Assembly: GCA_963662465.1 (NCBI GenBank)
Contig: OY759599.1
Location: 4,192,001-4,256,000, forward strand
Length of the DNA: 64,000 nucleotides
Source of the DNA: Desulfatiglandales bacterium
GTDB lineage: Bacteria > Desulfobacterota > DSM-4660 > Desulfatiglandales > Desulfatiglandaceae
Direction of reading: 5' to 3'
The translations under genes and the position numbers were made by a program. The stretch's first letter is position 1; every line of letters begins with the position of its first letter. The notes beneath the pieces were generated by a model. That model ran no database searches. It was not told the origin of the DNA and was given only the letters and a program-made list of their open reading frames with translations. Positions 11,811 to 42,835 of this stretch are shown here, piece after piece.

Positions 11811-12215
11811 TTATTCCGGGATAGAGGGTATCAAACTACGGATCTGCTCTAAAAATTGAGTGCACTGGTCCAGTTGGGTCTCCACATAAACCGGTTCGAA
11901 AGAGATGAAGACAACATAATCTCCCTCTTGACGATCCTCAAAGAGCTGATCATAAAGCCGTCCCCATTTCCGCTCAAGAAGGCCGGTTTTGATGAATTGC
12001 TGATGAAAAGCGGCACGAACCCCGGAATGCTTTCTGAAAGTCAGTTTATGCGCCATCAACAAAGCCGATACCGCATAAAAGGCCGCATAGTAGAGCCGGT
12101 TCATGGCAAAAGAAAAAGAGCTTGCCCCAAATTCACGCCGGGCAGAGGTGATACTCTCTTCCGCCTTTTCAAACCAGTAACCAACAACAGCAGAGCGTTT
12201 CTCACAGGTAATCAT
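11811..12215 (-). CDS. HEPN domain protein (MNT-HEPN TA toxin)
   Basis: NRLYYAAFYA, KHSGV, RQEGDY; ATGA overlap with the MNT gene. Confidence 0.88.
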   Translation of the reverse strand: MITCEKRSAVVGYWFEKAEESITSARREFGASSFSFAMNRLYYAAFYAVSALLMAHKLTFRKHSGVRAAFHQQFIKTGLLERKWGRLYDQLFEDRQEGDYVVFISFEPVYVETQLDQCTQFLEQIRSLIPSIPE

Positions 12216-12547
12216 AAGTGTATACCATCTCGAATGATTTCATCTCTCAGAGGAAGCACGGACATCATTCCTGTGTCCCAAGATTCCTGATCCACAACCA
12301 ACGTGCTGAAATTGGTTCCAAACTGGAGGTTGGCGTCAAAAACTATGTCCGTGATTTCGTGACGCTTGAATCGGGAAATCGGTTCAGACAGCACGATCAT
12401 AATGTCTACGTCTGACTCTTCATCCGCTTCCCCTCTCGCAGTGGAACCATACAGCACAAAGTCCACCACAGCGAAATCAGCCATGACTCTCGACTTTATC
12501 TGGCCAAACGCTTTAGACTGCCTCTTAGAGATCTGTATGTCATTCAT
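12212..12547 (-). CDS. Minimal nucleotidyltransferase (MNT antitoxin)
   Basis: YGSTARGE...SDVD (GSx10DxD); AGGAGG RBS before ATG 12547. Confidence 0.88.
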   Translation of the reverse strand: MNDIQISKRQSKAFGQIKSRVMADFAVVDFVLYGSTARGEADEESDVDIMIVLSEPISRFKRHEITDIVFDANLQFGTNFSTLVVDQESWDTGMMSVLPLRDEIIRDGIHL

Positions 12548-12601
12548 TTGTGGCCTCCTTTCCAACCACGAATCAAAGGATTAGAACCAATAGGATACGG
12601 G

Positions 12602-12811
12602 TCAGGCCCTTTCTTCCGGCGGCAATTGGTCAGTGATCCGCAATTCCAGCTCCTCCGGGGGGACTTCCTTTATTTGATCGTTTTCCCAGATAACCACAAG
12701 AGAGCCCGCCTGTTTAGCTCGCTGGATGACTTTATACGAAGCCTGCCGAAAGGCCGCATCTGCTTTCCATGCTAATGTGCCTTCAGTTTTCTTTTTGACG
12801 TCCATGTTCAT
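12602..12811 (-). CDS. Small protein of the type found after zeta-toxin-like ATPases
   Basis: Overlaps the zeta-like ORF stop; VVIWENDQIKEVPPEE-type C-terminus. Confidence 0.55.
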   Translation of the reverse strand: MNMDVKKKTEGTLAWKADAAFRQASYKVIQRAKQAGSLVVIWENDQIKEVPPEELELRITDQLPPEERA

Positions 12812-13218
12812 ATTTCCTCGTTTGCTTTTACGCGGGCGACGGCCATGTCCGCACTCGGGAGCCGGAGAAAAAAAAGCACAATCCGATAGCCATTCATTTT
12901 CAGCCTTTCGAAATGCCGCACATAGCTCCGTCCGGACAGGGTGGTTTCAAACCCGAAGTTTTCCTTTGCAGCGGTAAGTTCCTTGATCCTGGTCAGAAGC
13001 AACCGTCCGGCTCTCACATTCTGTGTTTCCGGAGCAAACGGCGAGAGCCCGGCGGCAATCAGGTCGGCGTTTAAAAACTGGCGGCAGTTTACGAAATCCG
13101 GCAGAAATTCGTTGGCAAATGTGGTTTTCCCTGCCCCGTTCGGTCCGGCAATCACATAAACCGTCGGATCTTCAGTATGAGGCTTGATCTCTTTTGGTTT
13201 GGTTTCTGTATTTTCCAT
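12808..13218 (-). pseudogene. Zeta-toxin-like P-loop ATPase, C-terminally truncated
   Basis: IAGPNGAGKTT, FLNADLIA, FETTLSG; ends abruptly at ARVK. Confidence 0.75.
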
Positions 13219-13250: not shown

Positions 13251-13302
13251 CTTCATCCCGTCATCCAGAGCAAGATTCATCCGCGGGTCGGTATGGTGAC
13301 AC
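13251..13302 (-). pseudogene. Diverged relic of a pglX 3' end
   Basis: 38/52 nt identical (hand count) to 16203-16254; HHTDPRMNLALDDGMK vs HYADQRISLDLDDGVK. Confidence 0.75.
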
Positions 13303-13305
13303 CCC

Positions 13306-14754
13306 TTATCCCGTGTCAACTGAGCGTTTTGCATTAATGGCCGCTGTGCCCTTCGGGGTCAAGCGGTATTTCTGCATACGGCTATTGGGTTTATGGGGAA
13401 TGGTGTATTCCAGCAACCCAGCTTTTTTGAGGCGGGGTAAGGCTTTCCGCAAATTACCACTCAATTTTTTGTGCCCCAGTGAGGTTGCTATTTCTGAAGA
13501 GGAGAGCGGATGCTCAGCGCAGACTGAAAGAATGTCCAGGTCGACTTGTGCCTCGACTTGTGCCTCGACTTGTGCCTCGACTGGCCCGGTTCTGGCTTGA
13601 ACAGTGATCTTGTCTGTTAATGGCACAATAAAACGCATCCTCATCCCAATTTCCACGATTTGCAGCTCCGGTAAACCCAGTTCTTCTGCTTCTTTGAAAA
13701 CACGCCGAACACCGCTGCCCCATTGTTCTATGAGACCCAACTCCCGAAAGATACGCGCAATCACCGAGTTTCGGATTTTGGAGACCCCCTGTTTCATATC
13801 CTCGATGGTCATGCCGGGAAGGAGAATGCCGGGATTTTCAACCTCGATGTGGTCATCGAAGAAAGCGATGCGGGTGGGAGCGCCCCGCTGGGAATAGTCG
13901 GCGTGAACCAGGGCATTGATCACCACCTCCCGTAGAATGCCAAGGGGAATACTCCAGACGTCTTTGCGACGGATTTCTGAAAAATCGGCGCCGCGCATGG
14001 CGTGTTTCTTGAGAAACAGCATGATACTTTCCACGGCCTGGGGCAGATGGTCGTGCAGCTCAATATGGTCAAAAATCTCGGCCTTATCCTGCCCCACAAA
14101 CCTTCCGCACTGAATCCAGGCATCGGGAAAATAACGAATTCGATCTTTTCCGAACAACAATACGGCGCCTTTGGTGGGTACAAGCCGGCCCTGTTCATGG
14201 GTCAGCAGTCTCAAAGTGATCAGTTCCTCTTCACCCAGTTTGCGTTCCCCCTTGAACAGTGATTTCATGGACGTCAGATCCAGATCGTCAATGGACAACT
14301 CAGGCATTGGGAGTTCGTCAAAAGCAATCCCTTCAGCCGAGCGGCGCAATTCAGCAATCAATTCCCGGTCTGCCTGTCGATTGGTTGATCCTAATCTGAC
14401 ATAAACTCCGTTTTCAGGTCCTTCCGTCTTCAGGTAATGAGGGCGCAAACCGCTTAGAAAGACCTCCACCACCAACACGGTCTTATCTTCCACCGTCATC
14501 AATTCCACATTCGGCACCAGACGTGGGGCAATGGAATCGGCAATGAGGTTGCATATCCGCTCTTCTTCATCCAGTGGATCCGCAACACCAACAACCCGCA
14601 GGTCATCATCCACCCCGACAACCAAACGGCCGCCCGCCGTATTCGCAAAGGCCAGCAATGTTTTGAGCATGGGCCGGGGGGATGACAGATCCCGCTTGAA
14701 CTCCAGTGTCTTGCCTTCCGGGCTGGTGAGAATTTGCTTGATTTTGACTGTCAT
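13306..14754 (-). CDS. AlbA_2/Schlafen-like domain + HATPase_c_4 + HTH protein (RecG-like regulator)
   Basis: EGKTLEFK, AFANTAGG, REVVINALVHADY, ENPG, EQWGSG, C-terminal QKYRLT. Confidence 0.88.
   Translation of the reverse strand: MTVKIKQILTSPEGKTLEFKRDLSSPRPMLKTLLAFANTAGGRLVVGVDDDLRVVGVADPLDEEERICNLIADSIAPRLVPNVELMTVEDKTVLVVEVFLSGLRPHYLKTEGPENGVYVRLGSTNRQADRELIAELRRSAEGIAFDELPMPELSIDDLDLTSMKSLFKGERKLGEEELITLRLLTHEQGRLVPTKGAVLLFGKDRIRYFPDAWIQCGRFVGQDKAEIFDHIELHDHLPQAVESIMLFLKKHAMRGADFSEIRRKDVWSIPLGILREVVINALVHADYSQRGAPTRIAFFDDHIEVENPGILLPGMTIEDMKQGVSKIRNSVIARIFRELGLIEQWGSGVRRVFKEAEELGLPELQIVEIGMRMRFIVPLTDKITVQARTGPVEAQVEAQVEAQVDLDILSVCAEHPLSSSEIATSLGHKKLSGNLRKALPRLKKAGLLEYTIPHKPNSRMQKYRLTPKGTAAINAKRSVDTG
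13541..13582. repeat. 12-bp tandem repeat TCGACTTGTGCC x3.5 (VEAQ repeats)
   Basis: Seen directly in the sequence. Confidence 0.95.
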
Positions 14755-14796: not shown

Positions 14797-15018
14797 TTAC
14801 GACTGAGCCTGCAACCGTTTCACCGGGCACTGTTTCAGCTTTTCGTTCCAGGTTTGTTCGCTGAACACCATAACCTCTTCAAGATACGGGTTCTTCCATT
14901 TGCCTTTATCCGGTCCCAGAAAGCAGCTGGATCTTTTCAGGCATTCCATCGCCCTGAGCATCAAAGCAGGGTCAGGGGTTCCAATGGCTATCAGGACAAG
15001 ATACTTTATGGGCTTCAC
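14797..15018 (-). pseudogene. Short ORF, probably the C-terminal remnant of the AAA ATPase partner gene
   Basis: Coupled to the AAA gene stop; only 73 aa. Confidence 0.4.
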
Positions 15019-16025
15019 TGGGAGCCTACCGCGCCTCCCAGTGCCCTTTCGATTTCCATATTGTACATCCTGGTAAACTGGTCGGCGATCCTGTTGGGCG
15101 ACAGGCCCGTGTAATTATCTGACGAATTGAGCGTTATTTCCATGTCGTTGTCCATGCTGAGGGAATAAAACCGGAGGGAATGGTCTGTACGTTGGAGATC
15201 AAACTCCTTGAGCAGTACATAACTGTGGGTCGCGATGAAAATCTGTACGCCCATTTTTTCCAACTGGAGAAGGACCTTTACAATCAACGGCAGCATGGAA
15301 GGGTTCAGATTAGCCTCTGGTTCGTCCCAGTAAAGGGTTGTTCCCTTTTCCAGGGACCCATTTCGAATGAGGAGCCAGAGTAGCGCCAGCTTGCGCATGC
15401 CTTCGGCAACCAGGGTAAACTCAATCTCCCCCAGCCTGTTTCGTAAGTAAAAGACCTCGTTTTTCGTAGTGATCTGTCCGCCCATGGTCTTCTGAAGAAG
15501 ACGGGCCAATTCTTCGAATTGAGGGTCCAGGCTCTTCAGAGGCGGCAGAAAGGCCTTATCAATAATGTCTACATAGATTTCCTCAAAATGGGTTACCCTT
15601 TCCACATACATGGACCGAAAACCGGGCGCATTGGCCAGCATCTCCTTGACCGGGATATATACGGGTCTTTCCGCCTTGAAATAATTCTTGCCCCCGTTGG
15701 TATGCGCTCCTTCCGCGTTTAACGTCACGGTCAGACCTTCACCGTCCCTGGCAATGGTGAAAGAGGCTTCTTTCCTGATCCCCTTGCCCCGGCGCAGGAG
15801 TCTCTTCAAAGACAGATCCCGCGGCAAGAATACACGCAGCAGTTTCCCGCTTATCTCCTTGGAAAATGAACCCTTCATTTCAGCGGCCTGAAGTGCATAG
15901 AGCAATTTCAATAGGTGCGTTTTGCCCGTGCCGTTCACCCCGATAAATAGATTGATCCCCGGCACACAGTCAACCACCAGGTGATCAAATGCAGTAAAGT
16001 CCCTGATTTCAAATCTTTCAATCAT
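15015..16025 (-). CDS. AAA_15/AAA_21 (ABC-type) ATPase, defence-associated
   Basis: GVNGTGKT, AEGMRK, WDEPEANLNP, IATHS. Confidence 0.88.
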   Translation of the reverse strand: MIERFEIRDFTAFDHLVVDCVPGINLFIGVNGTGKTHLLKLLYALQAAEMKGSFSKEISGKLLRVFLPRDLSLKRLLRRGKGIRKEASFTIARDGEGLTVTLNAEGAHTNGGKNYFKAERPVYIPVKEMLANAPGFRSMYVERVTHFEEIYVDIIDKAFLPPLKSLDPQFEELARLLQKTMGGQITTKNEVFYLRNRLGEIEFTLVAEGMRKLALLWLLIRNGSLEKGTTLYWDEPEANLNPSMLPLIVKVLLQLEKMGVQIFIATHSYVLLKEFDLQRTDHSLRFYSLSMDNDMEITLNSSDNYTGLSPNRIADQFTRMYNMEIERALGGAVGSQ

Positions 16026-16057: not shown

Positions 16058-16133
16058 ATTCGTGCTATTCGTAAAATTCGTGGTTGTTGTTTTTGTTTTC
16101 TTCATAATCCGTGTAATCTGCGTAATCTGTGGA
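16058..16133. repeat. Two 9-nt-period repeat triplets immediately downstream of pglX
   Basis: ATTCGTGCT/ATTCGTAAA/ATTCGTGGT and ATCCGTGTA/ATCTGCGTA/ATCTGTGGA. Confidence 0.8.
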
Positions 16134-19100
16134 TCACTCTTTTGCTTTTCCGGTTATCGCCTTCACCTCAGCCAATAGGTCTCCGAATCTCCCGTAGTTT
16201 ACCTTTACCCCGTCATCCAGATCGAGGCTGATCCGCTGATCGGCGTAGTGGCGCAGTTTTTCGTCAAAAGCATGAAGCTCCACCTGCTGTTTGACGAGTT
16301 TGTCTCTTTCCCTTTCCAGTTTCTTGCTGTGGGCCGTGGAAGTGGCGGCGGTGATGTCCCCCGATAATTGTTCGATTCGAGCGGCGATTTTCCCCTGCAA
16401 TGGGATCGCGTATTCGGTCCGCATGCGGGCTAACGTCCCTTCATTGTACCGGTGGAGATAGACCAGGCATTGAAAGGCCCGCAGCTTGCCGCTGGAAAAG
16501 AGCCAGTAGATGGGGCGCTTCTTGTAGGTCTTCAGGTGGTCCTTGAAGAAGCTGTCGCAGAGGTAGCGGCGAATGGTCTCGCGGCTACCTTCTCCCTTCT
16601 TGGGCGAGAGGTTGTCGGCCAGGAAGGTGAGGTTGGCTTCGAGGTGGCTCGCGTCCCAGGCCACCGAGATGAACTTGATGAGGCGGTGGCAGGCGTCATC
16701 GTCGAACCACTCGGTGTCGGTGAGCGGAACAATGCCGTCGGCATCGGCCGGGAAGGTGGGGTAGCGCCTGGGATCGAAGCCATCATTTCCGCTGTGGGCG
16801 TAGATGAGGCCCGGCGCATCCAGGCTGTAGCGGCCCATCATGCAGCCGATGGCGTAGGAGACCAGCTCCTGCATGGTGTCCTGGCGGAAGCGGGTCCACT
16901 GCGCATCAATGGTGAGCTTGCCGCCGTAGCGGTAGGCGGGGTTCACCGTGAGGGTGATCTGCGACAAGGGAACGTCGGGGGTGAGCTCGTCCTGCAGGCC
17001 GTAGGCGTCGATGAAGAGGCGGTTGTTCTTCTCTTCGAGGCGCTTCATCTCGGCGATGGTTTCGCGGTTCTGGGTGATCCAGGCGGTGTAGCTGGATTCG
17101 AGAGTTGGGGTGGGATCGGAGGATGCCGTTAGGATCGGAACGGACTGGAAATCCCAAGAACGTTCATAGGCGTTCCAGTCAGAAACCGAAATCCGTACGA
17201 GTGATCGTTCATTATCGTCAACTGAGGAACTTTGGTCTGAACTCAGCTTGAGATGTGGTAAACTCAAGACATCTGCCACTTGTGTATTCAGAGTTGGATT
17301 CATGGCCCTAACCAGCATCTGAGCTATCGGGGAGTTCAGTTGAGCCAATAAGACATAATCGCAGTTGAATTCATCGTTGAATATCGTAGGAGAGGCGGAG
17401 TCATACTCTGTGCAATCACGCTTGATCCGGAAGCTCGGAGGGCCTGATGTAATCTTGGTCCAACAGATACCTTCCTTCTCGACCATCTTCGTTGGGTACA
17501 TGCCTCCATTTGATTCATAAAAGGCAATTGCGCTTGGCGACCAATCGACCAAGAACTCCTCATTACCAGCATGCTTCCTGTATTCTCCACCTTTGATAAT
17601 TTGGCGCCATCGACTTGTAGGTCGCGAGGTTTCCCAGCAATAACGAAGATATTTGGGTCCGTCATGCGTTTTGATGCGTCCGCCAGAGAACCACTTTCGC
17701 CCAACCTTTTCGGACTCGAAAAGCCTGAGGAAATAGATCCAATACACCACTGGGCTTCCAGGAATCGTCGTAAATTCGTCTTGGGTCGTCGCATCAAATC
17801 GCAGCGTACCGTTAGCAAGTGCCGTTTGCTTTTCTTCTTCTCCGCCATTGAGTAGTCGGAAAAATGCCGGTTTGTATTTCTGTATTGACAGATTCTTGAG
17901 CACGAATGCCGTCGACTGTACGACCTCTCCCGAAATGCTCCCAAAGGCACGAGAGCCCAAGTGAGCCATCGTACGGATAGTTTTCTCCTTCAGAATCCAC
18001 TCCCGCATTTTCTGAAAGCTAGAGATGAACATCCAACTCTGCATCGTGATCATGGCGTTGTAGCCAGCGTCCCTCGCCAGCATGCAGCCGCGCTGAATGA
18101 AGCAGGCGAAGAGGTCGCTCTTTGCGTCCGGGAAGTTGTCTTTAGCGAACATTTTCACAGCGGCGTTCATGCTACTGCTACTCATGTAGGGGGGGTTCAT
18201 CACTACCGCGTCGTACTGCGCTGCCAGCAGTTCGGCCTGCCGCACCAGTGGCCGTAACCGATTGAGCGCTCCCGACACAAACAGATCCTGACTGGTCGCC
18301 TCGCTCAGTTGTTTCAGTGCAGGCAGTTTCCCCGTCAGTCTTTCGGGTACTTGAATCAGCGACCCAAACGTCGTCGCGTGCTCAAACAGCCGCTTCAGCT
18401 CCGTGAGGTCCCTCGACTCCAGCCCGTAGTTCGCCAGATCCACCCCCTTCGCCAACCTATCCGCATCAAACCCTGCACTATCCCCCAGTGCCATCACGTT
18501 GAGCTTCACCCCCCGCTCAAACAGCCGCCGATCATCCGCCCGCCCCTTCATCATCAGCGCAAAGCCCGTCAACTGCGCCGCCCGCTCGTCGATGTCGAGG
18601 CCGAAGAGGTTCTGGGTGAGGATCAGCTGCGGAACGTCTCTTTGTCGATAACCGCGCTCCAGGTAGATGGCCTTGAACAGCTCATATGCCTCTACCAGGA
18701 TGTGCCCGGAGCCGCATGCCGGGTCAATGAGGGTCAACTTCTCAGGATTCAGCGAGTCGGGCGTGATGGCCGCAAGCTGGGCGTTGACCTCGTCGGTCTG
18801 TTCGGCGGGCTCGATGTAGTACTCCATCTGCCCTTTGAGAGGCGACTGGGGATAGGTCGCCAGCCACTGCGCCCCCAGCGAATTCTGGACCATGTACTTC
18901 ACGATCCAGTTGGGCGTGAAGAGCTGGGTCGCCGCCGGAATGTCCTCCGCCTTCACCACCTTACCGATGACTTGGTCCTTCTTCTCCGAGATGTAGAACT
19001 GGTAGAGCCAGCCGATGATCTCGATGTCCTGCCAGTCCTCTTCCGGGATCTCGCTCACCAGGTTGCGGATCGGAGAATTGGAATGCAGCAGGTTGTCCGG

Positions 19101-19634
19101 CAAAAGAAGCTCGGTATAACCACCAATCTCTTCAAAAAGAAACGGCATGGCTTTGTGGAGGGCATTGCACTCGGCTATCAGAAGTATCCGGTAAAGTTCA
19201 GCTTCCTTGGTGCCGTCAAGCTTTAGTTCGATTACTTTCTCTTTATCCAGACCGGGAAAATCCACATGTTCGCCATGTTCCGAAATTTCGGGAACGGTGT
19301 TTCCCTCGGGGTGGCTCAGCACTCGATAGCCATGACCGAGATACCCATGAAGTTCCATGAACCGTATAGCCACGAATCGATTGAACCAGGTGTATGCCAT
19401 GGCCTCCATAACATACTCAAAGCCTTCCCGTCTGATCCGTTCAGCCAACCGTTTCCGCTTCTCTGCCACATCCTTAGGGAAAGGTTTCCCTTCAATAATA
19501 GCCACGTCTCCCTGTATGGTAACGGACTCGATCTTGTCTTTCGTTAGGCCATAAATGGCCGCCCGATCCGTCACAGCTGTTATGAAATCACGTCGAGCCT
19601 TGGGGGCGTATGTTTTGAGCTTATTTTGATTCAT
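16134..19634 (-). CDS. pglX: BREX adenine methyltransferase PglX
   Basis: AYTWFNR, ATQLFTP, DPACGSG, NPPY, KRPIYW, DLDDGVKVNY; likely start MNQNKLK at 19634. Confidence 0.95.
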   Translation of the reverse strand: MNQNKLKTYAPKARRDFITAVTDRAAIYGLTKDKIESVTIQGDVAIIEGKPFPKDVAEKRKRLAERIRREGFEYVMEAMAYTWFNRFVAIRFMELHGYLGHGYRVLSHPEGNTVPEISEHGEHVDFPGLDKEKVIELKLDGTKEAELYRILLIAECNALHKAMPFLFEEIGGYTELLLPDNLLHSNSPIRNLVSEIPEEDWQDIEIIGWLYQFYISEKKDQVIGKVVKAEDIPAATQLFTPNWIVKYMVQNSLGAQWLATYPQSPLKGQMEYYIEPAEQTDEVNAQLAAITPDSLNPEKLTLIDPACGSGHILVEAYELFKAIYLERGYRQRDVPQLILTQNLFGLDIDERAAQLTGFALMMKGRADDRRLFERGVKLNVMALGDSAGFDADRLAKGVDLANYGLESRDLTELKRLFEHATTFGSLIQVPERLTGKLPALKQLSEATSQDLFVSGALNRLRPLVRQAELLAAQYDAVVMNPPYMSSSSMNAAVKMFAKDNFPDAKSDLFACFIQRGCMLARDAGYNAMITMQSWMFISSFQKMREWILKEKTIRTMAHLGSRAFGSISGEVVQSTAFVLKNLSIQKYKPAFFRLLNGGEEEKQTALANGTLRFDATTQDEFTTIPGSPVVYWIYFLRLFESEKVGRKWFSGGRIKTHDGPKYLRYCWETSRPTSRWRQIIKGGEYRKHAGNEEFLVDWSPSAIAFYESNGGMYPTKMVEKEGICWTKITSGPPSFRIKRDCTEYDSASPTIFNDEFNCDYVLLAQLNSPIAQMLVRAMNPTLNTQVADVLSLPHLKLSSDQSSSVDDNERSLVRISVSDWNAYERSWDFQSVPILTASSDPTPTLESSYTAWITQNRETIAEMKRLEEKNNRLFIDAYGLQDELTPDVPLSQITLTVNPAYRYGGKLTIDAQWTRFRQDTMQELVSYAIGCMMGRYSLDAPGLIYAHSGNDGFDPRRYPTFPADADGIVPLTDTEWFDDDACHRLIKFISVAWDASHLEANLTFLADNLSPKKGEGSRETIRRYLCDSFFKDHLKTYKKRPIYWLFSSGKLRAFQCLVYLHRYNEGTLARMRTEYAIPLQGKIAARIEQLSGDITAATSTAHSKKLERERDKLVKQQVELHAFDEKLRHYADQRISLDLDDGVKVNYGRFGDLLAEVKAITGKAKE

Positions 19635-19635
19635 T

Positions 19636-20259
19636 TTATTTGAATCCTGTGTCATCATAGGAACCTACTCTCAATCTCTTCACAAGCCGATAAACCGTCG
19701 ACCCATTTCCCCTCGGCCAATTCTTGCACGGTGGTCTATCCTTTTCCTCTGCACGACGAATGGCATCGGATATACCTGTTTGGACCTTTTCAATTTCAAA
19801 ATGGCCTTTTTCAAAGTTCGGTAGATGCCGAATGAGCCGCTCTGTACAATCTCTGGAACCGGATACGCCCTTTCCATCCTCGAAATGAAGCAGGAGCCAA
19901 TACTCAAACTTTGGATTGCTGACCGCCAGATTGTATGCGACGGTTTTACATGCCAAATACACCTTCTCCAAGTGTTTTTCAGTCCACTGGTCGCGGTCTA
20001 TCACCAGCCATACCTCGTCCTTTTTGCCAAGTCCCTTTTCTTTAACAAATGCTTGCGCTCGTTTCAGGACCTGTGGAGGAGAGGTGTCATGTTTTTTTGC
20101 GGGAAGAAGCTTCACATGAATGGTTGCTTGAGGGCTGTTGAAAATGCCAAAATAAATCGGCTCGGTCTTGGCCCCTTCCGTTGCGATGAGAAAAAGTTTA
20201 CGATAGGAAAGATAAGGCGTTGGTCTCCTGAACTTTCGCCTTTTCTTGGCCATCAGCAT
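19636..20259 (-). CDS. RloB family protein (AbiLii-like)
   Basis: [33 protein letters not shown]. Confidence 0.88.
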
Positions 20260-21596
20260 GCGCTCCCGGTCGCGGAGACATTTTCTGTCTTAAGTGGACC
20301 TGAGAGGAGGATGCGGGGTATCCCGCCCAACCGACCCTGAAGATAGCTTTTTCGGATATCTTTGTCGTACCGCATGTCTTTATATGAACTGAATGGCAAC
20401 AGAGATGTGCAACCCAGACCATCCCGCTCAGTTACCCACATTTCATCCCGGCGAAAGAGCTTCTGGTCCATGAGCAGAACATCATGGGTTGTCAACAGCA
20501 ATTGAGAACGGGTATCAGGCGTGCAGGATTCCAAATATCCGGCCAGCAATTCCCGGGTTAAAAGTGTATGAAGGCTGCGGTCGATTTCATCGATCACAAA
20601 GACCCTTTCGGCGCCATCAGCCGCAAGTTCCAGAAATGCCGGAATCAGATCAATGATGCGTTGGGTCCCATCTGATTCCTGCTTCATGTCAAACCGGATT
20701 TCATTCCCTGCCGAATCATCGTGAAAACTGACCAACTTTCGGGCCGCCAATTCTCCATTCTGACGCATTATGGCAAAACGTTCATGGTCCGGTTCAAGCA
20801 ATAAACGAACCGTCACGCCTTCCGGTATCTCCTCCTGAAGTTTCATCTTGAGATCCTCAGGCAGGGTCATATTCTCAAATGAGACTTTTTCGCCGCCTAA
20901 ATGGGAAATACCGGTATCAAGATGCCCCAGGGCAAGGTTCATGTGCCGGTACAAGGGATTCGCTTCCTGGAAAAAACGCTCAAAGGGTTCAAAGCGGCTG
21001 TCAGGTGCAATCATGACCAGGCTGTCCCGAAACCAATCATAGATAGGCTTAAAGCGTTCCACTTTCTGGTTAACGGCATTGGTGAGAAACAGCTGATTGT
21101 CGCGGGTTCCCTGAAAGGCAAAGCGAAGGAACTGGTCCTTTTTCAATTCAGTTGAAAAAACAATCTCATCTTCTTTGCGATGGTATAGACTTTTTTCGGT
21201 TGTTTTGAGGATCTCCGTAAGCCATTCTTCGATAACATGTTCACGGGTTACACAAAACCCGTATTCATACGACCGATCATCAATTAACAGCTCAAAAACC
21301 AGACGAGTCGGTTTCTGTTTGAAATCGGGGTTCAATCGGAAGGGCGCCACTGCAATCATGGCTTCGGGTTGCGTACCTTTGAGAACCAAGTGGCGCGCAA
21401 AGCTGAGAGCTTTGAACAAATTGGTTTTGCCCGACGCGTTTCCGCCATATATGGCGGCAATGGGTAACAGTCGCATATTGTATTTATCAATGCGCGGAAC
21501 ACGTTTCAGGTGTTGTTTTTCACGGCTCGCGACCATGGAAAAGGTCGACCGATCGCGAAACGACAACCAGTTTTCAATGGAAAAAGATATCAACAT
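20253..21596 (-). CDS. RloA/AbiLi-like AAA_21 ATPase
   Basis: [39 protein letters not shown]. Confidence 0.88.
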
Positions 21597-21703
21597 TTCC
21601 TGTCTCCGATAATATTTCTCTTAAAATTACGTTGAAATCAAAGATAATATTTTAATGTCTTTATTTCAAGAGGAATTTTCTCGCAAAACGTTCCCGCCCT
21701 TAT

Positions 21704-22084
21704 CTATTCACTATCATCAGAAGTCTCCAAATCTGGGGTCACAACCATTTCAGCCGGTTTCAAAATACACCGGGATTTCCTCTCTTTGACTTGTTTAGTT
21801 CTTGCTTTCCAATATCTCGGCCGTCTCTTTTGGTGGGCAACAGCTACGATTAGAATCAAATCCGGCTCGATAGAATATAAGATGTTGTATGAAAAGTTGT
21901 TCAGTATCTTGCTACGAATCCCGCCTCCGACGGCTACAGCGGCATAAGGATTTTCGATAATCCATCTGACAGCTCTTCGCACTTCCGCAACAAAGGCGAC
22001 CCCGACTCCAGGCGCCTTTGTTTCATAGTACATTGTCGCCTCTCGGAAATCCTCCTCGGCTTCCGGTAAAAATTCCGAGTTCAT
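21704..22084 (-). CDS. ParE/RelE family toxin with a brxC-derived C-terminal tail
   Basis: PEAEEDF, FSYNILY, VAVAHQKRRPRYW; tail KSRCILKPAE...LET. Confidence 0.82.
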   Translation of the reverse strand: MNSEFLPEAEEDFREATMYYETKAPGVGVAFVAEVRRAVRWIIENPYAAVAVGGGIRSKILNNFSYNILYSIEPDLILIVAVAHQKRRPRYWKARTKQVKERKSRCILKPAEMVVTPDLETSDDSE

Positions 22085-22311
22085 GAAATGTCATCCATTG
22101 CCCGGCGAAATACCTCGTCTGCGGGTATGCCACTTGATTTGCCCTCGCGGAACTCTTTCAAACGGCGTTCAGCCTCTTCGAGCCAGAGCCTCTCCACCTC
22201 AGAGTCCGATGGTTCATCCAAGCTGAGCAAAAGCCTTCCGGCCAGCTGTGCTCGTTCCTCGATACCCAATTGAAGAACCGTGGTACTTATCTCATCGAAT
22301 TTATTTTCCAT
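22081..22311 (-). CDS. Addiction module antitoxin (TIGR02574-like)
   Basis: ERAQLA..LLLSLD...WLEEAERR...IPADEVF. Confidence 0.85.
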   Translation of the reverse strand: MENKFDEISTTVLQLGIEERAQLAGRLLLSLDEPSDSEVERLWLEEAERRLKEFREGKSSGIPADEVFRRAMDDIS

Positions 22312-22416
22312 AACTTGCCTCTCCACCTTTTAATTAGTGATTTCCGACCTGTCCGGCAATAAGCGTTGGTCATTATGCGTTTTTTTTCAAATCATTGCAA
22401 TATGCCCTGACCTCGT

Positions 22417-22497
22417 TCACGCAGAGTTCATCCCGTACATCGCTGAAGCGACATACATGAAGGCATTTTCGATCTCTGAAAACAAGCATTTGACCAT
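22417..22497 (-). pseudogene. Possible UPF0158-family N-terminal relic
   Basis: FSEIENAFMYVAS...MNSA followed by a stop. Confidence 0.35.
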
Positions 22498-22499
22498 AA

Positions 22500-22784
22500 T
22501 CAAGCTGCTATCCGCTCGAGATTATCGATATCTACATTTTGTCTTGCTTTCCACAAATCAAATTGAAGTTGAAGCCTTAGCCATCCTTCGGGAGTACGAC
22601 CGAAAACCTTTGAAAGTCTCAAAGCCATCTCAGGACTAATTCCTGATTTCCCGTTCAGGAGCATTGAAAACGTCTTCCTGGTAACGCCAAGAGATTCCGC
22701 TGCCTTGGTAACGGTTAAATTGAGCGGCTCTACACAAAATTCCTTTATCATTTCACCTGGATGAGGTGGGTTATGCATACCCAT
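22500..22784 (-). CDS. higA: HigA family antitoxin (orphan)
   Basis: [23 protein letters not shown]. Confidence 0.9.
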
Positions 22785-22796
22785 AACAAACTCCTT

Positions 22797-22937
22797 TAAT
22801 GATAATCTTCATGATTTATCCGCTATATCGCCTACACGCAATCGGTTCGGGAACCACCTCTTTGTTGAACTCCATATCCTGAACGATATCTGCGACCATT
22901 TTTCGGACCCCCTTTAAGGCCGCCTCCGGGGTTCCCC
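22797..22937 (-). pseudogene. HicB-like fragment fused to the last codons (EDYH*) of a deleted HigB
   Basis: TPEAALKGVRKMVADIVQDM...VPEPIACRRYSG, then GAAGATTATCATTAA just before the higA RBS. Confidence 0.6.
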
Positions 22938-22973
22938 AAAGAAATGATCACAAATCCTGCACAAATGTCCCGG

Positions 22974-25900
22974 TTATCTAATCTGGACACGTTGACCGGA
23001 AGAGATGGCCGTTTCGAGTTTTTTTCTCAGTTCGTCCAAGAAGCGGTCAACGTCTTCGGGGGTCTCTAAATATGTGGTATCTGCCAGGTCTGCGGGTTTG
23101 ACAATGCAACGTGGTTTCAGTTTGGGTTTTTTGGCTGGAGGGTCCTCAATGCCGGGCCCTTTTACCGGCTTCTTGACGAATTCCTCCACTTTGGCCATGG
23201 CTTCATCAAATGCCTGCATAGCCTTTTGTTCAGCCTGGGTCAGATGGGCAATGCTATCGATCCCCTCAACCTGTTTATGAAGGCTTTCCAGAGGGCTAAG
23301 GCATGAATACCTTAAACCTCCGTCTCCCTGCGCCGAATCCAACTCCTTCGTCATTTCAGAGATGAGCCCATCTATCTTGGCGACAGCTTCGCTGCGACGC
23401 TGCGTCACCATTATCGTATTGACTTTGCTGACAGTGCCAATAAGCCCTTCGGCTTCATGAACCATCTTATAGGGCGCCGGGGCATCCAGAATCTCTTTCA
23501 TCCGCCTCAGAGCCGGTGCTGCCAGGTCATCTCTTTCAAGCTCAAAACTATTCAACTGAAACCTCTGATAAGCCGATCGGAGCTTTTCCCATGTGGGCCT
23601 TTGATTATCATAAAACTGTTCCAGATTATGGAATTCGTCGGATAGATCCAGGAGATCTTCCCTGTGTTGGTTGAATCGCTCAATGAATTTGTAGCTCTCA
23701 TCACAGGCCAGGAGAGGCTTGACCACGGCCAATGCCTCCTCGATCTCCGCCTTACCCGGATAGTTCCCGGTATCAGCCAGGGGCTTGAAGGTACTTAATG
23801 CGGTTTCCCAGGCCTTGAGTTGGCCCTGCAAAAAGTCAAAAAGGGCGTCCTCGTTGTCCGGACCCATCTTGGAGAAAAGATCCTGACCCAGTTGACGAGC
23901 CTTCTGGATTTCCTCTATTGGGGGTCGCCTGCGTCTTTGGATTGTAATCTTGCGCCACTTGGCAGGGGTCTTGATATTTTCGTAAACCTTGTCCAGGGGC
24001 AGTGTGTCCCCTTCCATTCTGAGGCTGATCTCACCGACGGCGAGCAGGCGAGCCAACAAGAGGAGTACCTCCAGGTCGGGCCAGCCATAAGGCCGAACGG
24101 CATATCGTTTCAGGATGACATCATAAAGCACCATTGTATGATGCTTGAGCCTACAGAGGTCAACATAGCTACGAAGATCCTCCATCGCTTGCGGGTTGTT
24201 CTCTTCCAGGTTGAGCGCAAGGGTTAGCTGGGATACATCGTTGCTCCGGAGAAGCGCCTGGATTTCCTTTTGAGGATCAGGATGGAGATACTTGAGATAG
24301 CCCATCTTGAAAAATGAGTTGGTGATCAGATATTCCAGGGCCTCGGACAGGCAGGCTCCGGGAGCTGAAGCCTTGATTTTGAGTCCCTGCCCAACAGCGA
24401 AGTAGGATGCCTCGGTGAGCATGTCGCCCAGAAGGTTGGTCAAAAGCTCCCTGCGACCACGGTTGTCGTCGGCATTGTCCCGAAGGATTCGCCTGGAGGA
24501 ATCGGGGAGGCCGCTATCACTCTTGGTCTTGAGGTATTTATCGGTCTGGGCATATATGCGGAGTTCCCGGCCCAACCTTTCGTTATCCTGTAAGCGGATA
24601 ATGATCTGACCCCCCTCGTTGCTGCTTTCAAGCACAGATTTACCATCATTGTATAGTGGGTATTCATCGGCCAGGGGGGAGACTACGGAAACGATCAACC
24701 CACCCTCCACACGACCGCCCACAGGGTGCATGTCGCAGATCCGGTTGAAGGTGAAATCCATCTTGTTCTTGGAATAGCGATGTTTACGCAGGCCCTTGAG
24801 GACATCCTCGAAAATGAATTCTCCCAATAGCTGGGCCTCTTCCGCGCCGCCTATATCGACAATCTCGATCTCCCGTTTGATGTCCCTCTCCTCATTTGTA
24901 AGGAAGAAGTAGTTCTCACCGCTTCGGTTGATCAAGGTTTCATTTTCAAGCCTCTGGAGGCTCTCTTCAATTTGGCGGCGAAGGGTCAGCCGGTCCGCAT
25001 CGATCTCGTTGAGGCACAGGGTGACCAGGTTGTCCACACTGCCCTTGATCTCTTCAACATACCTTATCAGGAACAGCACCCGCAGTAGCTTGATATCGAA
25101 GGGTTCAAGGCTCGGGTTTTCGGAAGCCTGCTCGATGGTGCGCTTCACGGTTGTATCGAGGAAACTTTCTATGGAAGGATAGAAATCATAGAGGGGGACC
25201 AGCACCCCTACATCTTTGAGGGCAACGTTCTGAGCGGCAGACTGGAAGGCATCCAGCATGGATCTTTCGCCCTTGGCCAGATGGAGTCCGGTGGCGCCTA
25301 CGCGACGGATAACCTCGAAGATTTTCTGGAGAAGGCGAAACTGGTATGGGGCAAAGGGATAGTTGTCGGCAAAATCATCCCCGTCGGCATAGGGTTTGAG
25401 GGTCATACCGCAATCCCTGAAGGTCAGTTGGTGACGGAGGATGTCGCCTTTTTCGGCAAAAATGGCCTTGAGGTCCCCTACCACGCTCTCCTCTTTTTCC
25501 AGCAGCCGTTTTTGGATGACCTCATCGGCATTGGCGCTGGAGAGCGATAACCGGGTCTGGAACCTGCCCTGAATCTTAGAGAAATCATTCTTGGTGGCGG
25601 TTCTGAGTTCACCTAAGATTTTATCGATTTCCTCCTGGGACGTAACAATCACCCAGGCTCTCCCCTCGCAAAGGGTGCCCAGGTCTTCCGTGACGGTCTG
25701 AAGATTGAGCATCAAATGGCCGTCCGTGCCGATGAATTGCCCGATCTCATCCACGAGGAAGACGAGGCGATGATCGGGACCTCGGGAATCGAGATACGCC
25801 TTGACCCAGTTAGCAAAGTTTTCGACGGTGAGCGAGAAGTTGTTTTCGGCGTTATCGATCCATTTCTCCGCTGATTCCCGGCTTTGGTCCAAAGTTCGCA

Positions 25901-26555
25901 CAAAGGCCTCCACCACCTGATCGCGGTTGAATTCATAGGCGTCACGCTCTTCCGTCCATTCGGTCCGGGTGACATCCCTGTAGGCATTATGGAATGCTTT
26001 AAGCTTCCCCTGGTTGTCCAGGTAACGCTCAAGGTGTGCAATGTGGGGATGGTCCCCGTCATACCCCTGCATTTCGTTTAAAACCTTCAGGAAGACGGCG
26101 AGGATGGCGTCTCGACCTGCCTTGCTGTCGGCCTTGCTGTCGATGTTGAAGAGGATCACGTCGGTATTGGAAGCCACGGCCCGCTTGATATCTCCGAAAA
26201 GCATGGCGTCTTTCACTTTTCCGTCGAAGAATTCAACCGGCCTTTTAGTGTCGCCTTCATAGGAGTGCAGCCTGTTGCCCAGGAGATAGGACAGCACTTT
26301 CAGGAAATGGGACTTCCCGGAACCGAAGAAACCGGATATCCAAACCCCCATCTTTCCGGTAACGGCCGGGTCTCCGGGGTTGTCCACGACATTCAGGTAG
26401 GCGGACAGAAACTTCCCGAAATGTTTATCCAGTTCTTTGGTGATGACAAATTCGTCCAGTTCCTGCCACACGGAGCGGTCGTCTAATTGGTGGGCCTTGA
26501 CCACACCGTTGATGGAGCGGAAAATGTCTTTCTTGAACAAACTCTTGATTTGCAT
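22974..26555 (-). CDS. brxC: BREX P-loop ATPase BrxC
   Basis: GVWISGFFGSGKSH, LVDEIGQF, FSKIQGRF, YPFAPYQ, GERSML. Confidence 0.95.
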   Translation of the reverse strand: MQIKSLFKKDIFRSINGVVKAHQLDDRSVWQELDEFVITKELDKHFGKFLSAYLNVVDNPGDPAVTGKMGVWISGFFGSGKSHFLKVLSYLLGNRLHSYEGDTKRPVEFFDGKVKDAMLFGDIKRAVASNTDVILFNIDSKADSKAGRDAILAVFLKVLNEMQGYDGDHPHIAHLERYLDNQGKLKAFHNAYRDVTRTEWTEERDAYEFNRDQVVEAFVRTLDQSRESAEKWIDNAENNFSLTVENFANWVKAYLDSRGPDHRLVFLVDEIGQFIGTDGHLMLNLQTVTEDLGTLCEGRAWVIVTSQEEIDKILGELRTATKNDFSKIQGRFQTRLSLSSANADEVIQKRLLEKEESVVGDLKAIFAEKGDILRHQLTFRDCGMTLKPYADGDDFADNYPFAPYQFRLLQKIFEVIRRVGATGLHLAKGERSMLDAFQSAAQNVALKDVGVLVPLYDFYPSIESFLDTTVKRTIEQASENPSLEPFDIKLLRVLFLIRYVEEIKGSVDNLVTLCLNEIDADRLTLRRQIEESLQRLENETLINRSGENYFFLTNEERDIKREIEIVDIGGAEEAQLLGEFIFEDVLKGLRKHRYSKNKMDFTFNRICDMHPVGGRVEGGLIVSVVSPLADEYPLYNDGKSVLESSNEGGQIIIRLQDNERLGRELRIYAQTDKYLKTKSDSGLPDSSRRILRDNADDNRGRRELLTNLLGDMLTEASYFAVGQGLKIKASAPGACLSEALEYLITNSFFKMGYLKYLHPDPQKEIQALLRSNDVSQLTLALNLEENNPQAMEDLRSYVDLCRLKHHTMVLYDVILKRYAVRPYGWPDLEVLLLLARLLAVGEISLRMEGDTLPLDKVYENIKTPAKWRKITIQRRRRPPIEEIQKARQLGQDLFSKMGPDNEDALFDFLQGQLKAWETALSTFKPLADTGNYPGKAEIEEALAVVKPLLACDESYKFIERFNQHREDLLDLSDEFHNLEQFYDNQRPTWEKLRSAYQRFQLNSFELERDDLAAPALRRMKEILDAPAPYKMVHEAEGLIGTVSKVNTIMVTQRRSEAVAKIDGLISEMTKELDSAQGDGGLRYSCLSPLESLHKQVEGIDSIAHLTQAEQKAMQAFDEAMAKVEEFVKKPVKGPGIEDPPAKKPKLKPRCIVKPADLADTTYLETPEDVDRFLDELRKKLETAISSGQRVQIR

Positions 26556-26566
26556 AAGTGCCTCGC

Positions 26567-27142
26567 TTATGGGACCAGTTTGAAGGCTCTGTAATAGTTG
26601 TTGCTCTTGATCTTCCCGAATAACCGAAGGGCCTGTCCATCATATCGGCCCGGATAAAACATCACAAGCGGCGTCTGCCCCATGACCGTTTGCAGGTTAT
26701 TGAGCAGGTTGTGGGATCGGACCAGGGGCCAGACACTCCCAACACCTGAAACGAGCACGAGGTCCTGCTCCTCCGGCTGCGCGACTGCCACAAATATCCG
26801 CACCAGTTTTTCGGACTTCAGTGGCCCACGGAGGGCCTTGTGGAGGGCCTTGTCGCCCTTGTCCCTTTGCATCCGGAAGGATTTCTCAAGCAGATTTCGC
26901 TCCTTGAGATGATTAACGATGAGATCGAAGAGGTTGACATGCATTACCCTGAGTCCGGGCCGGTTTTTGGGGATGTGGGCCATGAGAAATTGAATATGTT
27001 CCCGGACGCGGAGTTCCGCCTCGGGCGGGTAGTCAAAAATATAAAAGGCAATTTCGTTCCCAAGGCCTTTGCCGCTGAGAAATTCGGGGGAAATGACCTT
27101 TGGGAGGATTTCATTTAGGCGCTCGGTCAGTACATCTGTCAT
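26567..27142 (-). CDS. brxB: BREX protein BrxB (DUF1788)
   Basis: GLGNEIAFYIFDYPP, MFYPGRYDG, YYRAF. Confidence 0.95.
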   Translation of the reverse strand: MTDVLTERLNEILPKVISPEFLSGKGLGNEIAFYIFDYPPEAELRVREHIQFLMAHIPKNRPGLRVMHVNLFDLIVNHLKERNLLEKSFRMQRDKGDKALHKALRGPLKSEKLVRIFVAVAQPEEQDLVLVSGVGSVWPLVRSHNLLNNLQTVMGQTPLVMFYPGRYDGQALRLFGKIKSNNYYRAFKLVP

Positions 27143-27750
27143 GGTGAAACCTTAATACAACGGAGGACGTAGTGTTCGTCATGACTCTCCAGGTATTGAA
27201 GCACCTGCGAGGCAATATGGACCGTTTGCAGTTTTCTGGATCGGGTGCTTTCGATATAGCCTGCCTGGGCCAGGATCTGGAAGACGGATGACCGGAGACG
27301 TTTCCTGGTAGATTCGTTCCAGATGGGCATATGGGGATCACGGCCCCGGCAATCATCCAGGTAATCTTCCCAACATCTATTGGATAGGGTTGTGGTGAAT
27401 ACCCGGTAATGCTCCCGGACAACCAGATCGAGAAAGTCTCCCAGAAGAGGACTATGCTTGATGGCCGAGGCCAGGACGGCATGGGTAGAGACTTCACCCG
27501 TACCGTCCCGAACGAGCTCCCAAAGATCGGTTTCCATGGTCTCCAAACGGCCACGGATAAGCCGGGCAAAGCGCCTGGCGGTTTCAGGACTCCGGGCCTG
27601 GAGCACGTTCATATTTATGACTGCCTCGTCCCAGGCCCGTTTGTCAACACCACGGAGAAGCAGATCAGCGATGATCCTGCTCTCTGAAACCTTAAGCGAT
27701 CCTGCCGTAATGTCAGCCTTGTATCTCAATGAAAAGGCCTTCCCGATCAC
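27139..27750 (-). CDS. brxA: BREX protein BrxA (DUF1819)
   Basis: YKADITAGSLKVSESRIIADLL, LAQAGYI. Confidence 0.93.
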   Translation of the reverse strand: MIGKAFSLRYKADITAGSLKVSESRIIADLLLRGVDKRAWDEAVINMNVLQARSPETARRFARLIRGRLETMETDLWELVRDGTGEVSTHAVLASAIKHSPLLGDFLDLVVREHYRVFTTTLSNRCWEDYLDDCRGRDPHMPIWNESTRKRLRSSVFQILAQAGYIESTRSRKLQTVHIASQVLQYLESHDEHYVLRCIKVSP

Positions 27751-28355: not shown

Positions 28356-28898
28356 AAATTGTAATTCTGGAGAGAAAATTGCGACTTCAGCAGGAAAATT
28401 CTGCAAGCTAACGACCAACTTCTGAGAATACGGGAATCTGTACTAACTGCTATCTATTTCAGGCGTGTAACCGCTACAAATAACTGCAATATCAATAATA
28501 TATGTCAGAAATATTTCGTCTCAATATGTTTAGGGGCGGTCAAGAAATCAAAGCATGGAGGAGAGTTTGAAAAGAACCGATATCTCAGGTTTGTCAGGAC
28601 CCCGAATTTAGGATGAAGACAAATCAAAGGACTTACTGAGGCCCCCCGTTATTGGGGGAAGCCTCATTGATGAAGTCCTGAACAGGATTTTAGCTTTTGC
28701 AGGAGCCGTCCTTTTTCCGGTCTCTGCTTTGCTGTTTGGCCATAGTCATCGGGTTATGGTAATTACGTAATCAGGGTAATCTGCGGAAGGGCAGGATCTG
28801 ATATGCAGAACAAAGAATTTTGTTGGTGAATCATATTCGATTATAGTAAAGTAACAACTGTCAAGAAAAATACTGACCTCCAGAATGTTACGATCGTT

Positions 28899-29291
28899 AT
28901 GGGTTATCAAAAGAGAATCCATTTTTTTGTTGCTTTTTTCCTGCTCTGCGCTGTTTTCTCTAACGGTGCATTGGCAGAAGCCTGTTTCTGCGGACAAGCC
29001 TGCCTGCATGGCCCGCAACATAAAGTGAAATTTGCGGTTAACCTCCCCTTTCATATGCGTTGCACAGGGACTCTGTGCAAAAGTTGTGTTTTGGAAAAAG
29101 GCCAAACATCAATAGCCGTCAATTCTGCAGCACGAACATATCATGTGAAAATTCGCTATATTGCCAACCTGAATCCACTTATCGATTCCCCTTCCGCTTG
29201 TCATATTTTTGTAGATAGGGGATCTTTTACTGCCCACAGAGTAGTTTCCTCAGCGCCAATTTACCTCCAAAACCTTTCCATTCTTTGTTGA
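28899..29291 (+). CDS. Small Cys/His-rich exported or membrane hypothetical protein
   Basis: Hydrophobic N-terminus, CFCGQAC and CKSC. Confidence 0.5.
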   Translation: MGYQKRIHFFVAFFLLCAVFSNGALAEACFCGQACLHGPQHKVKFAVNLPFHMRCTGTLCKSCVLEKGQTSIAVNSAARTYHVKIRYIANLNPLIDSPSACHIFVDRGSFTAHRVVSSAPIYLQNLSILC

Positions 29292-29470
29292 TCCAGCAAG
29301 GATTTCTTCACTGCCATAAAAAAACATCGTTCTATTTAAAAGCACCTTCATTCATGCCGGAACACGGGCCGGGTGCGATTGGTGGCGGATCGTTAACCAT
29401 GCTGATGAAATACTTATTTTTGGCCCTTTTTAGATGAACACAAGAAAGAAAGCCGGATGGGAGCTGAGAC

Positions 29471-42737: not shown

Positions 42738-42835
42738 GGAAGTGGTAAGCTCACTGGTGGGGCTCCCGGACTTCAAATCCGGTGTATCGGGCTAAAACCT
42801 CGATAGGTGGGTTCGATTCCCATGCACTTCCGCCA
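42738..42835 (+). tRNA. selC: tRNA-Sec (anticodon TCA)
   Basis: GGAAG 5' end, CCGGA-CTTCAAA-TCCGG anticodon arm, long variable arm, TTCGATT loop, GCCA 3' end. Confidence 0.95.

Follow-up and report, generated by a model that had tools for sequence, protein, structure and literature searches.

The BREX-1 operon and its cargo slots

We analysed a 64,000-nt stretch of a Desulfatiglandales genome (contig OY759599.1, positions 4,192,001–4,256,000; below, "the window"). Judged by gene content, its minus strand from 7125 to 27750 is predicted to encode a complete type 1 bacteriophage exclusion (BREX) operon. The core genes follow the order brxA-brxB-brxC-pglX-pglZ-brxL, run in one direction, and all have open frames. 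Accessory genes occupy two slots. The brxC–pglX slot (3.3 kb) holds HigA, an antitoxin–ParE pair, and an AbiL-like ATPase/RloB pair. The 4.3-kb slot between pglX and pglZ contains a HEC-02-like ATPase and part of its partner, followed by an AlbA_2 protein, a zeta-like gene whose partner is a small open reading frame (ORF), and a nucleotidyltransferase/HEPN pair. The accessory genes in both slots differ among the BREX-1 operons of related bacteria. Here we describe a dead copy of the brxC 3′ end that forms the tail of parE, and which is probably a recombination scar.

A relic of the brxC 3′ end at the tail of parE

The C-terminal tail of ParE (21708–21779, minus strand) aligns with a segment of BrxC (23047–23118, minus strand) at 48 of 72 nt and 12 of 24 amino acids, exactly as an earlier note on this DNA had counted by hand. 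The match is confined to one diagonal, with neighboring offsets giving 14–28 of 84. The excess of third-position mismatches claimed in that note is also present: the 24 mismatches (23 codons) are divided 7/3/14 among codon positions 1, 2, and 3. When the last 60 amino acids of BrxC were aligned with the six frames of the brxC–pglX interval, the score was 62, a value reached by none of 2000 residue shuffles (mean 33.6, maximum 53). In random 3.3-kb stretches of the genome, the best ungapped identity over 72 nt was 33–40 in 149 of 150 draws. The remaining draw (72/72) is brxC itself, because a genome search shows no second copy.

The relic is indeed a piece of the brxC 3′ end, but it does not run collinearly to the stop codon, as the last 23 codons are missing. 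The boundary of the relic also has to be shifted. ParE homologues are most commonly 108 amino acids long (60 of the 120 listed), and the closest ones end in …KERETP or KKRKSP, that is, just after the K-S of the tail. Therefore, the first two residues of the aligned tail (KS) belong to ParE rather than BrxC, the brxC-derived part starts at about 21772, and ParE has lost its own last codons and stop. The tail motifs tested were found in none of the 120 listed ParE homologues. The two genes would overlap by about 7 nt of microhomology at the join, an estimate based on the protein ends of ParE homologues and not on donor DNA.

A second relic, from pglX, lies in the pglX–pglZ slot (13251–13298, minus strand), in line with the recurrence of the pattern for pglX that the earlier note had claimed. 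It matches pglX at 36 of 48 nt (4 of 2000 shuffles). The match is real, but an internal deletion of about 40 nt keeps it from being collinear to the stop. In locus L033, an intact pglX stands directly before a homologue of the zeta gene that follows the pglX relic of the window.

The relic comes from another brxC allele

The brxC relic resembles other alleles more closely than the brxC of its own operon, confirming that it is a diverged brxC allele. Among all loci compared, ungapped matches over 73 nt amount to 56 for G535, 53 for G512, 51 for a second BREX remnant of the same genome, 50 for G016, and 48 for the window's own brxC. Identity to the G535 allele is 77%, and of the 21 sites that distinguish G535 from the window brxC, the relic shares 12 with G535 and 3 with the window.

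The genes behind the relic belong to such an allele as well. A close homologue of the ATPase occurs in 8 of 209 genomes. In G016, G532, and G553, an intact brxC stands directly before the ATPase/RloB pair, separated by a spacer homologous to the one behind the relic; two other genomes with the ATPase homologue have only a brxC tip upstream. In G512, a toxin–antitoxin (TA) block lies between brxC and ATPase/RloB, and no relic was found there. The relic marks a cargo junction, as the earlier note had proposed. The arrangement in the three relatives and the homologous spacer indicate that the relic and the ATPase/RloB pair are one inherited block, trimmed by deletion of the last 23 codons. The relic is a dead same-strand copy of the end of its anchor gene downstream of inserted genes. 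It derives from a different allele and precedes the native downstream genes of that allele (ATPase/RloB for brxC, zeta for pglX).

The window brxC as an apparent mosaic

In 50-codon bins, the window brxC is 84–95% identical to that of G535 over codons 1–800 and 60–78% identical from codon 851 onward, whereas G535 and G016 share 76–92% throughout. The ancestry step lies at codon 871, where the mismatch rate rises from 6.6% to 29.7% (maximum chi-square of 284 versus a permutation maximum of 16.6); four control taxa gave chi-square values of 13–68 at other positions. This step and the 12:3 site pattern are a prediction of the earlier displacement model, in which a new 3′ end with its cargo displaces the old end, so that the gene body and relic belong to one lineage and the working end to another.

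Among 36 BrxC proteins, several types of the C-terminal third (60–68% alike) are found on N-terminal bodies that are 88–96% alike (P0001–P0030, G005, G016, and G535), which suggests that the C-terminal third is a repeatedly swapped module. No donor carrying the C-terminal third of the window on a distant body was found; the sole close match is P0001. The locus of G005 shares brxA–C, the start of the TA cargo, and pglZ–brxL with the window at 94–98%, and has a different middle in which parE is cut after codon 12.

Three results speak against displacement or are neutral to it. An approximately unbiased (AU) test does not reject a nonrecombinant clade (p 0.06). P0001 groups with the window in both halves of BrxC (N-terminal part 90%, C-terminal part 82% alike); because it shares both halves and the C-terminal thirds vary family-wide, the step near codon 870 is possibly older than the relic event. 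Moreover, G005 has neither the relic nor ATPase/RloB, which fits a later loss in G005 or a later gain in the window. Displacement of the old end is only moderately favored by the step and the site pattern, and we lean slightly toward the relic being the resident end. It is almost as likely to be a donor tip that was carried in with the ATPase/RloB block.

Gene-end relics in other BREX-1 loci

Of the 165 BREX-1 loci surveyed, 79 came from genomes and 78 from metagenomes, 7 were retrieved by genome handle, and one is the window; three duplicates had been dropped. A phylum-wide genome search yielded only 5 of 401 genomes. Of the surveyed loci, 81 provide a total of 105 slots in which both flanking gene ends are present and the cargo spans at least 300 nt. 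The flanking genes were cut into 210-nt segments, each of which was aligned to its own slot at a threshold score of 48. Matches were found for 17 of 210 slot-facing terminal segments (14 slots, 12 loci), compared with 5 of 2730 internal segments and 1 of 2940 opposite-strand tests. They are distributed over brxC 3′ ends (3/38), pglX 5′ ends (3/38), pglX 3′ ends (9/67), and pglZ 5′ ends (2/67). Without the window, 15 of 206 terminal segments match, 10 at 3′ and 5 at 5′ ends. One of the internal matches (L012) adjoins the gene end, and the other four are presumed to be repeats. The loci are partly non-independent, since L036 and L069, both from Thiohalocapsa, have a common scar.

Copies of slot-facing gene ends thus occur in 14 of 105 slots, and the expected recurrence in other cargo-bearing loci is borne out. 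Relic-bearing slots have a median length of 3.3 kb, versus 1.8 kb for the others, and contain one or two relics, which are 67–93% alike to the working gene. The codons at which the relics begin are scattered (pglX about 1075, 1088, 1134, 1137, 1140, 1143, and 1153; brxC 1107–1180). Recombination anchored in core genes, as proposed, is the best explanation, but these boundaries speak against a fixed attachment site.

The proposed specificity for 3′ ends did not hold. Mirror-image relics, derived from the 5′ end of the downstream core gene, occur as well, and four scars are fused 5′::3′, with the start of the downstream and the end of the upstream core gene placed between two cargo blocks. In L045 (Ca. 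Accumulibacter), pglZ codons 1–29 run in frame into pglX from codon 1153 to the end, with an 11-nt overlap. L126, a young scar, joins pglZ 1–58 in frame to pglX 1088 to the end (83–91% alike), L069 joins pglX 8–34 in frame to the last 14 brxC codons, and L088 joins pglX 9–25 to the last 17 brxC codons. Because such mirror-image and fused scars exist, entry is possible from either flank. In L036, a PIN-like gene runs in frame into a relic, as ParE does in the window.

Several candidates were discarded. Apparent relics proved to be a locus's own frameshifted or contig-edge gene ends in L008, L009, L014, L080, L090, L106, L115, L130, L137, L144, L153, L157, L158, L164 (brxC), L165, and L166. L167 was a split end of the genome's second BREX locus, L015 a chance match in mid-cargo, and L161 fell below the threshold (score 42). 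Relics in L028, L132, L018, and L162 look real and lie outside complete slots of at least 300 nt, so they are excluded from the 14 of 105.

Two further arrangements were seen. In L162 (2861–2926 and 19154–19667), brxB and brxC tail relics lie behind brxL, and only a brxB tail stands before brxC. In three loci (L120:11945–14974, L135:5182–8795, and L139:11905–14844), cargo separates the two parts of a pglX that is interrupted near codon 600; it is a 1009-amino acid reverse-transcriptase protein in L120 and a SIR2-HerA pair in L135. This split is possibly a third slot.

The same scar at other genes of the genome

The relic had been viewed as a BREX device, which is not the case: other genes of the same genome carry the same scar. 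Among 2947 ORFs of at least 330 amino acids, 32 have their last 210 nt copied within 4 kb downstream where no long paralogue lies. The controls gave 6 for mid-gene segments and 10 for 3′ ends sought upstream, and upstream of 22 ORFs lies a copy of their first 210 nt. Under stricter conditions (last 120 nt, 0.3–4 kb away), the count was 22 versus 4, 3, and 1 in three controls; among these 22, two resemble template repeats of diversity-generating retroelements (DGRs), one is the window pglX, and some are repeats. Others flank small TA inserts. These are a PemK-family pair behind the gene for an acyl-CoA dehydrogenase, with a young scar matching at 186/198 nt, a TumE pair behind a transglycosylase gene, and a PIN pair. 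Because they recur beside ordinary genes, the relic is a general recombination scar rather than a BREX-specific device.

We compared the polarity of 10 non-BREX scars with up to five same-genus genomes. The site of the TumE pair is empty in all five, and the relic is nearer to the ancestral end of the transglycosylase gene (4:1, 5:0, 3:2, 2:2, and 2:1). At C1:194875 and C1:2716448, which we take to be lpxB-like and mutY-like genes, the native neighbor is kept and the relatives match the working end (11:1 and 11:0), so these relics are donor-derived or decayed. Five scars are uninformative. One is a duplicated overlap with a convergent gene, and C1:5840030 belongs to a repeat.

Other regions of the genome are related to the operon. 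A second, decayed BREX-1 locus (L167, G000:C1:7275000–7286600) lies beside a tRNA-Asn gene. Its brxC is reduced to 146 amino acids by an in-frame deletion of about 1000 codons, and an inverted-repeat element of roughly 150 bp, with an 8-bp direct repeat, separates the last codons from the rest. Its pglX is frameshifted, and pglZ and brxL were not found within the 20 kb read. The AlbA, zeta, and nucleotidyltransferase/HEPN genes are common to this locus and the window, in another order. An orphan pglX tail relic (L197, G000:C1:5115356–5115515) has similarly lost about 40 nt internally and precedes a fragment of the AlbA gene, with no close BREX locus nearby. Further distantly related BREX-like loci lie at about 0.52, 0.78, 2.12, 4.61, and 7.83 Mb of C1. 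Two regions are likely DGRs: L212 (G000:C1:402400–406000) comprises a CHAP/Lcl_C target, an Avd-like gene, a template repeat, and a reverse transcriptase, and L213 (2624900–2627200) comprises an FGE-sulfatase target, an HRDC gene, and a repeat, with no reverse transcriptase in the stretch read.

Features of the operon and its surroundings

The positions of all features are given in Table 1. The first cargo block (22421–22966) is pieced together from 40–115-nt remnants of HicB, its upstream gene, and UPF0158, all of which are whole in relatives. The gene preceding HicB, presumably HicA-like, has no Pfam hit. A short tandem repeat (16105–16135) directly behind the pglX stop has many copies in the genome and is also found behind brxC or pglX in relatives. 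Upstream of brxA lies a 925-bp element (28759–29683) with a 95% copy elsewhere in the genome, and a tRNA-SeC gene is located at 42738–42835.

Table 1. Positions in the window of the BREX-1 genes, cargo genes, and relics
Feature	Position	Strand
brxA and brxB	26567..27750	-
brxC, intact, 1193 amino acids, apparent mosaic; ancestry step near codon 860–871 (about 23945–23980)	22974..26555	-
Working brxC tail segment matched by the relic	23047..23118	-
Fragments of the HicB gene and of the gene preceding it	22820..22966	-
HigA-like antitoxin; HigB partner deleted in the window, present in G005	22500..22784	-
UPF0158 gene, start fragment; complete in G005 and the second BREX locus	22421..22498	-
Antitoxin, PF09720	22081..22326	-
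ParE/RelE toxin, 126 amino acids; own last codons and stop lost	21704..22084	-
Putative illegitimate junction parE::brxC, about 7-nt microhomology (ParE K-S-P versus BrxC K-P-R codons)	21772..21778	-
brxC-allele relic, codons about 1149–1170, in frame as ParE C-terminal tail	21707..21772	-
Spacer and probable ATPase-gene promoter; homologous to the brxC-to-ATPase spacer of G016, G532, and G553	21597..21706	-
AAA_21 ATPase, best PADLOC match AbiLi, cargo block B	20253..21596	-
RloB-like protein, PADLOC match AbiLii, cargo block B	19636..20259	-
pglX, intact; 16203–16250 matched by the pglX relic	16134..19658	-
HEC-02A-like ATPase and 73-amino acid piece matching only the HEC-02B end	14797..16025	-
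AlbA_2/HATPase cargo gene	13306..14754	-
pglX-allele relic, codons 1137–1152, then deletion and zeta gene start	13251..13298	-
Zeta-like gene, small partner ORF, nucleotidyltransferase and HEPN genes (cargo behind the pglX relic)	11811..13218	-
pglZ and brxL	7125..11802	-

Origin of the relics

The brxC relic is probably the scar of an integrase-free tandem accretion by one homologous crossover and one illegitimate join; the process is general recombination and requires no new machine. DNA of another allele would enter by a RecA-type crossover within a core gene and an illegitimate join guided by microhomology, either in one step of homology-facilitated illegitimate recombination (HFIR) or by circularization followed by a single crossover. 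Every case would comprise one homologous and one illegitimate junction. Intact core genes would then enclose both slot fillings, stacked one after the other, and the seam would contain a fragment of a core-gene end. In the window, the brxC 3′ third with the TA cargo would have been joined to the brxC tip with ATPase/RloB of a different allele, at parE codon 104 and brxC codon 1149, and the relic trimmed by later deletions. Joins inside a core-gene tip would leave all core genes whole and a visible relic, whereas joins past the stop would leave none. The window gained about 1.2 kb, and about 0.85 kb (about 280 codons) of the other allele is missing. These amounts agree with HFIR, for which insertions and deletions of 1 kb and 3–10 bp of microhomology are described (PMC3240628). 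The overlap is about 7 nt in the window, as estimated from ParE proteins, and 11 nt in L045; the product would be alike for one- and two-step routes.

Several observations qualify this origin or weigh against it. Without a positional prior, the brxC signal is modest: whole BrxC reaches an E value of 0.068 in tblastn against the window, and an all-allele blastp, which is too noisy under about 36 bits, gives 34 bits for the relic, a value shared by 20 reversed and 15 opposite-strand decoys. Hidden Markov models of 36-amino acid segments of six core genes miss the window brxC relic at 10 bits but find strong relics elsewhere, and the pglX relic is likewise weak without such a prior. In site comparisons, the relic favors G016 over its own brxC by only 11:8, and against G553 and L033 it sides with its own gene, which speaks against displacement as well. 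At most other relic loci, the best match of the relic is the locus's own gene. The survey threshold of 48 was fixed post hoc and equals the two scores of the window itself; at 44, the terminal count is 18 and the opposite-strand count 4. No relic is seen in 91 of 105 slots or in four single-cassette plasmid slots, and the 239 plasmid records carrying a pglX tail yielded only 241 places. Most cargo thus lacks a detectable scar, as ordinary double-crossover exchange or decay would lead one to expect. Finally, the genome encodes ComEC and DprA, yet so do 10 of 14 control genomes, so their presence is no proof of competence.

The same end product would arise if the whole or a large part of a second BREX allele had entered in tandem, followed by large microhomology deletions that left little of the redundant core genes beyond the tips beside useful cargo. 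Consistent with this route, two or three whole tandem pglX genes stand in one BREX-1 operon in L009, L095, and L096, L005 has a 134-codon pglX 5′ relic, and brxC of the second BREX remnant has lost about 1000 codons in frame. Both window relics carry secondary deletions as well, and gene fragments form a mosaic in the cargo zone. However, the detected terminal relics are mostly 38–240 nt long with few intermediate lengths, and two rare events would be required. We consider this route unlikely; it differs from the accretion proposed above in the path only.

An order of new end, cargo, and old end is also the product of integrative elements in tRNA genes and some coding genes. A trans-acting integrase might accordingly insert cargo circles at an attachment (att) core in the brxC or pglX 3′ end, restoring the gene end. 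The second BREX remnant adjoins a tRNA-Asn gene and has a short ORF that we take to be excisionase-like, both of which would suit such an element. But relic starts differ by tens of codons among loci with no fixed att core, 5′ relics and fused scars are not att products, and relic and gene are merely 67–93% alike. In addition, there is no integrase among the 24 window proteins scanned (operon and nearby genes), and the sole tRNA gene of the window is 15 kb from brxA. The scattered boundaries largely refute site-specific integration, which we regard as very improbable.

A chance similarity or a functional ParE extension, suggested by a short match that is weak in unbiased searches, is refuted by the 77% identity to another allele, the collinearity with the downstream genes of that allele, the shuffles (0/2000), and the tail motifs found in none of the listed ParE homologues, and its probability is negligible. 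A DGR template repeat was ruled out, as the mismatches are mixed in kind, with most at third positions, and the slots contain no reverse transcriptase.

Implications

BREX slots are known to yield new anti-phage genes, but how cargo enters without breaking the operon is not spelled out in the literature searched. The scars offer a concrete, testable entry route. They also mark cassette boundaries and former core-gene neighbors, which helps to split composite slots into candidate systems. More speculatively, and rather improbably in our view, the scars are kept and used. Since the working gene end and a relic are direct repeats of each other, RecA could loop out the cargo between them as a circle, which would re-enter any BREX allele with a similar tip. 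If so, the scars would amount to an integrase-free cassette system for defense genes. In the same reading, the fused start::end mini-ORFs (three of four in frame), like ParE in the window and the PIN-like gene in L036, would carry translation over the seam and spare pglX, pglZ, and brxL from polarity.

Comparison with known systems

Goldfarb et al. in 2015 reportedly described truncated and duplicated pglX genes. Accessory genes between brxC, pglX, and pglZ of BREX-1 are known from StySA (10.1101/2021.11.15.468586) and from a BREX survey (PMC12839542), the relevant passages of which mention neither relics of core-gene ends nor an entry route. The open full-text literature searched, as distinct from subscription papers and supplements, holds no report of such scars in BREX, and passages of a 2026 paper on TA evolution show none either. 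The earlier note knew of no description of the mechanism; this applies to BREX within that literature, but the mechanism has been published for rhs and type VI secretion system (T6SS) arrays (PMC2935791 and PMC5361080).

According to the passages on HFIR, the one-step route typically brings 1 kb in and takes 1 kb out at 3–10 bp of microhomology, and circularization with a single crossover, ten times commoner in Escherichia coli, partially duplicates the end of the target gene (Amarir-Bouhram et al. 2011, PMC3240628). The window would resemble these products in the gain and loss of about 1 kb each and in a putative short microhomology. Those were laboratory events with identical homology, whereas the BREX alleles are 10–35% diverged and are known here from sequence alone.

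The C-terminal displacement of rhs genes (Jackson et al. 2009, PMC2935791) likewise leaves core fragments of variable length before displaced downstream sequence. A circle-plus-single-crossover model was proposed there, with exchange limited to related cores. In the rhs case described, the tips are the payload and form long arrays, whereas BREX slots hold one or two relics that are 67–93% alike to the gene.

For the T6SS effector–immunity modules of Vibrio, sequential displacement was described (Kirchberger et al. 2017, PMC5361080). There, too, a conserved upstream part of a gene serves as the anchor, modules enter in an HFIR-like manner, the old downstream genes and sometimes the old effector 3′ end are shifted back, and no integrase is known. 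What is displaced in T6SS is a variable toxin domain, and the genes that remain encode cognate immunity proteins. In BREX, by contrast, the relic is the conserved, nonfunctional tip of a core gene, the cargo consists of unrelated defense or TA genes, and entry also occurs from the downstream side. To this known type of scar, the BREX loci add a frequency of about one in eight cargo slots sampled, together with two-sided and fused forms.

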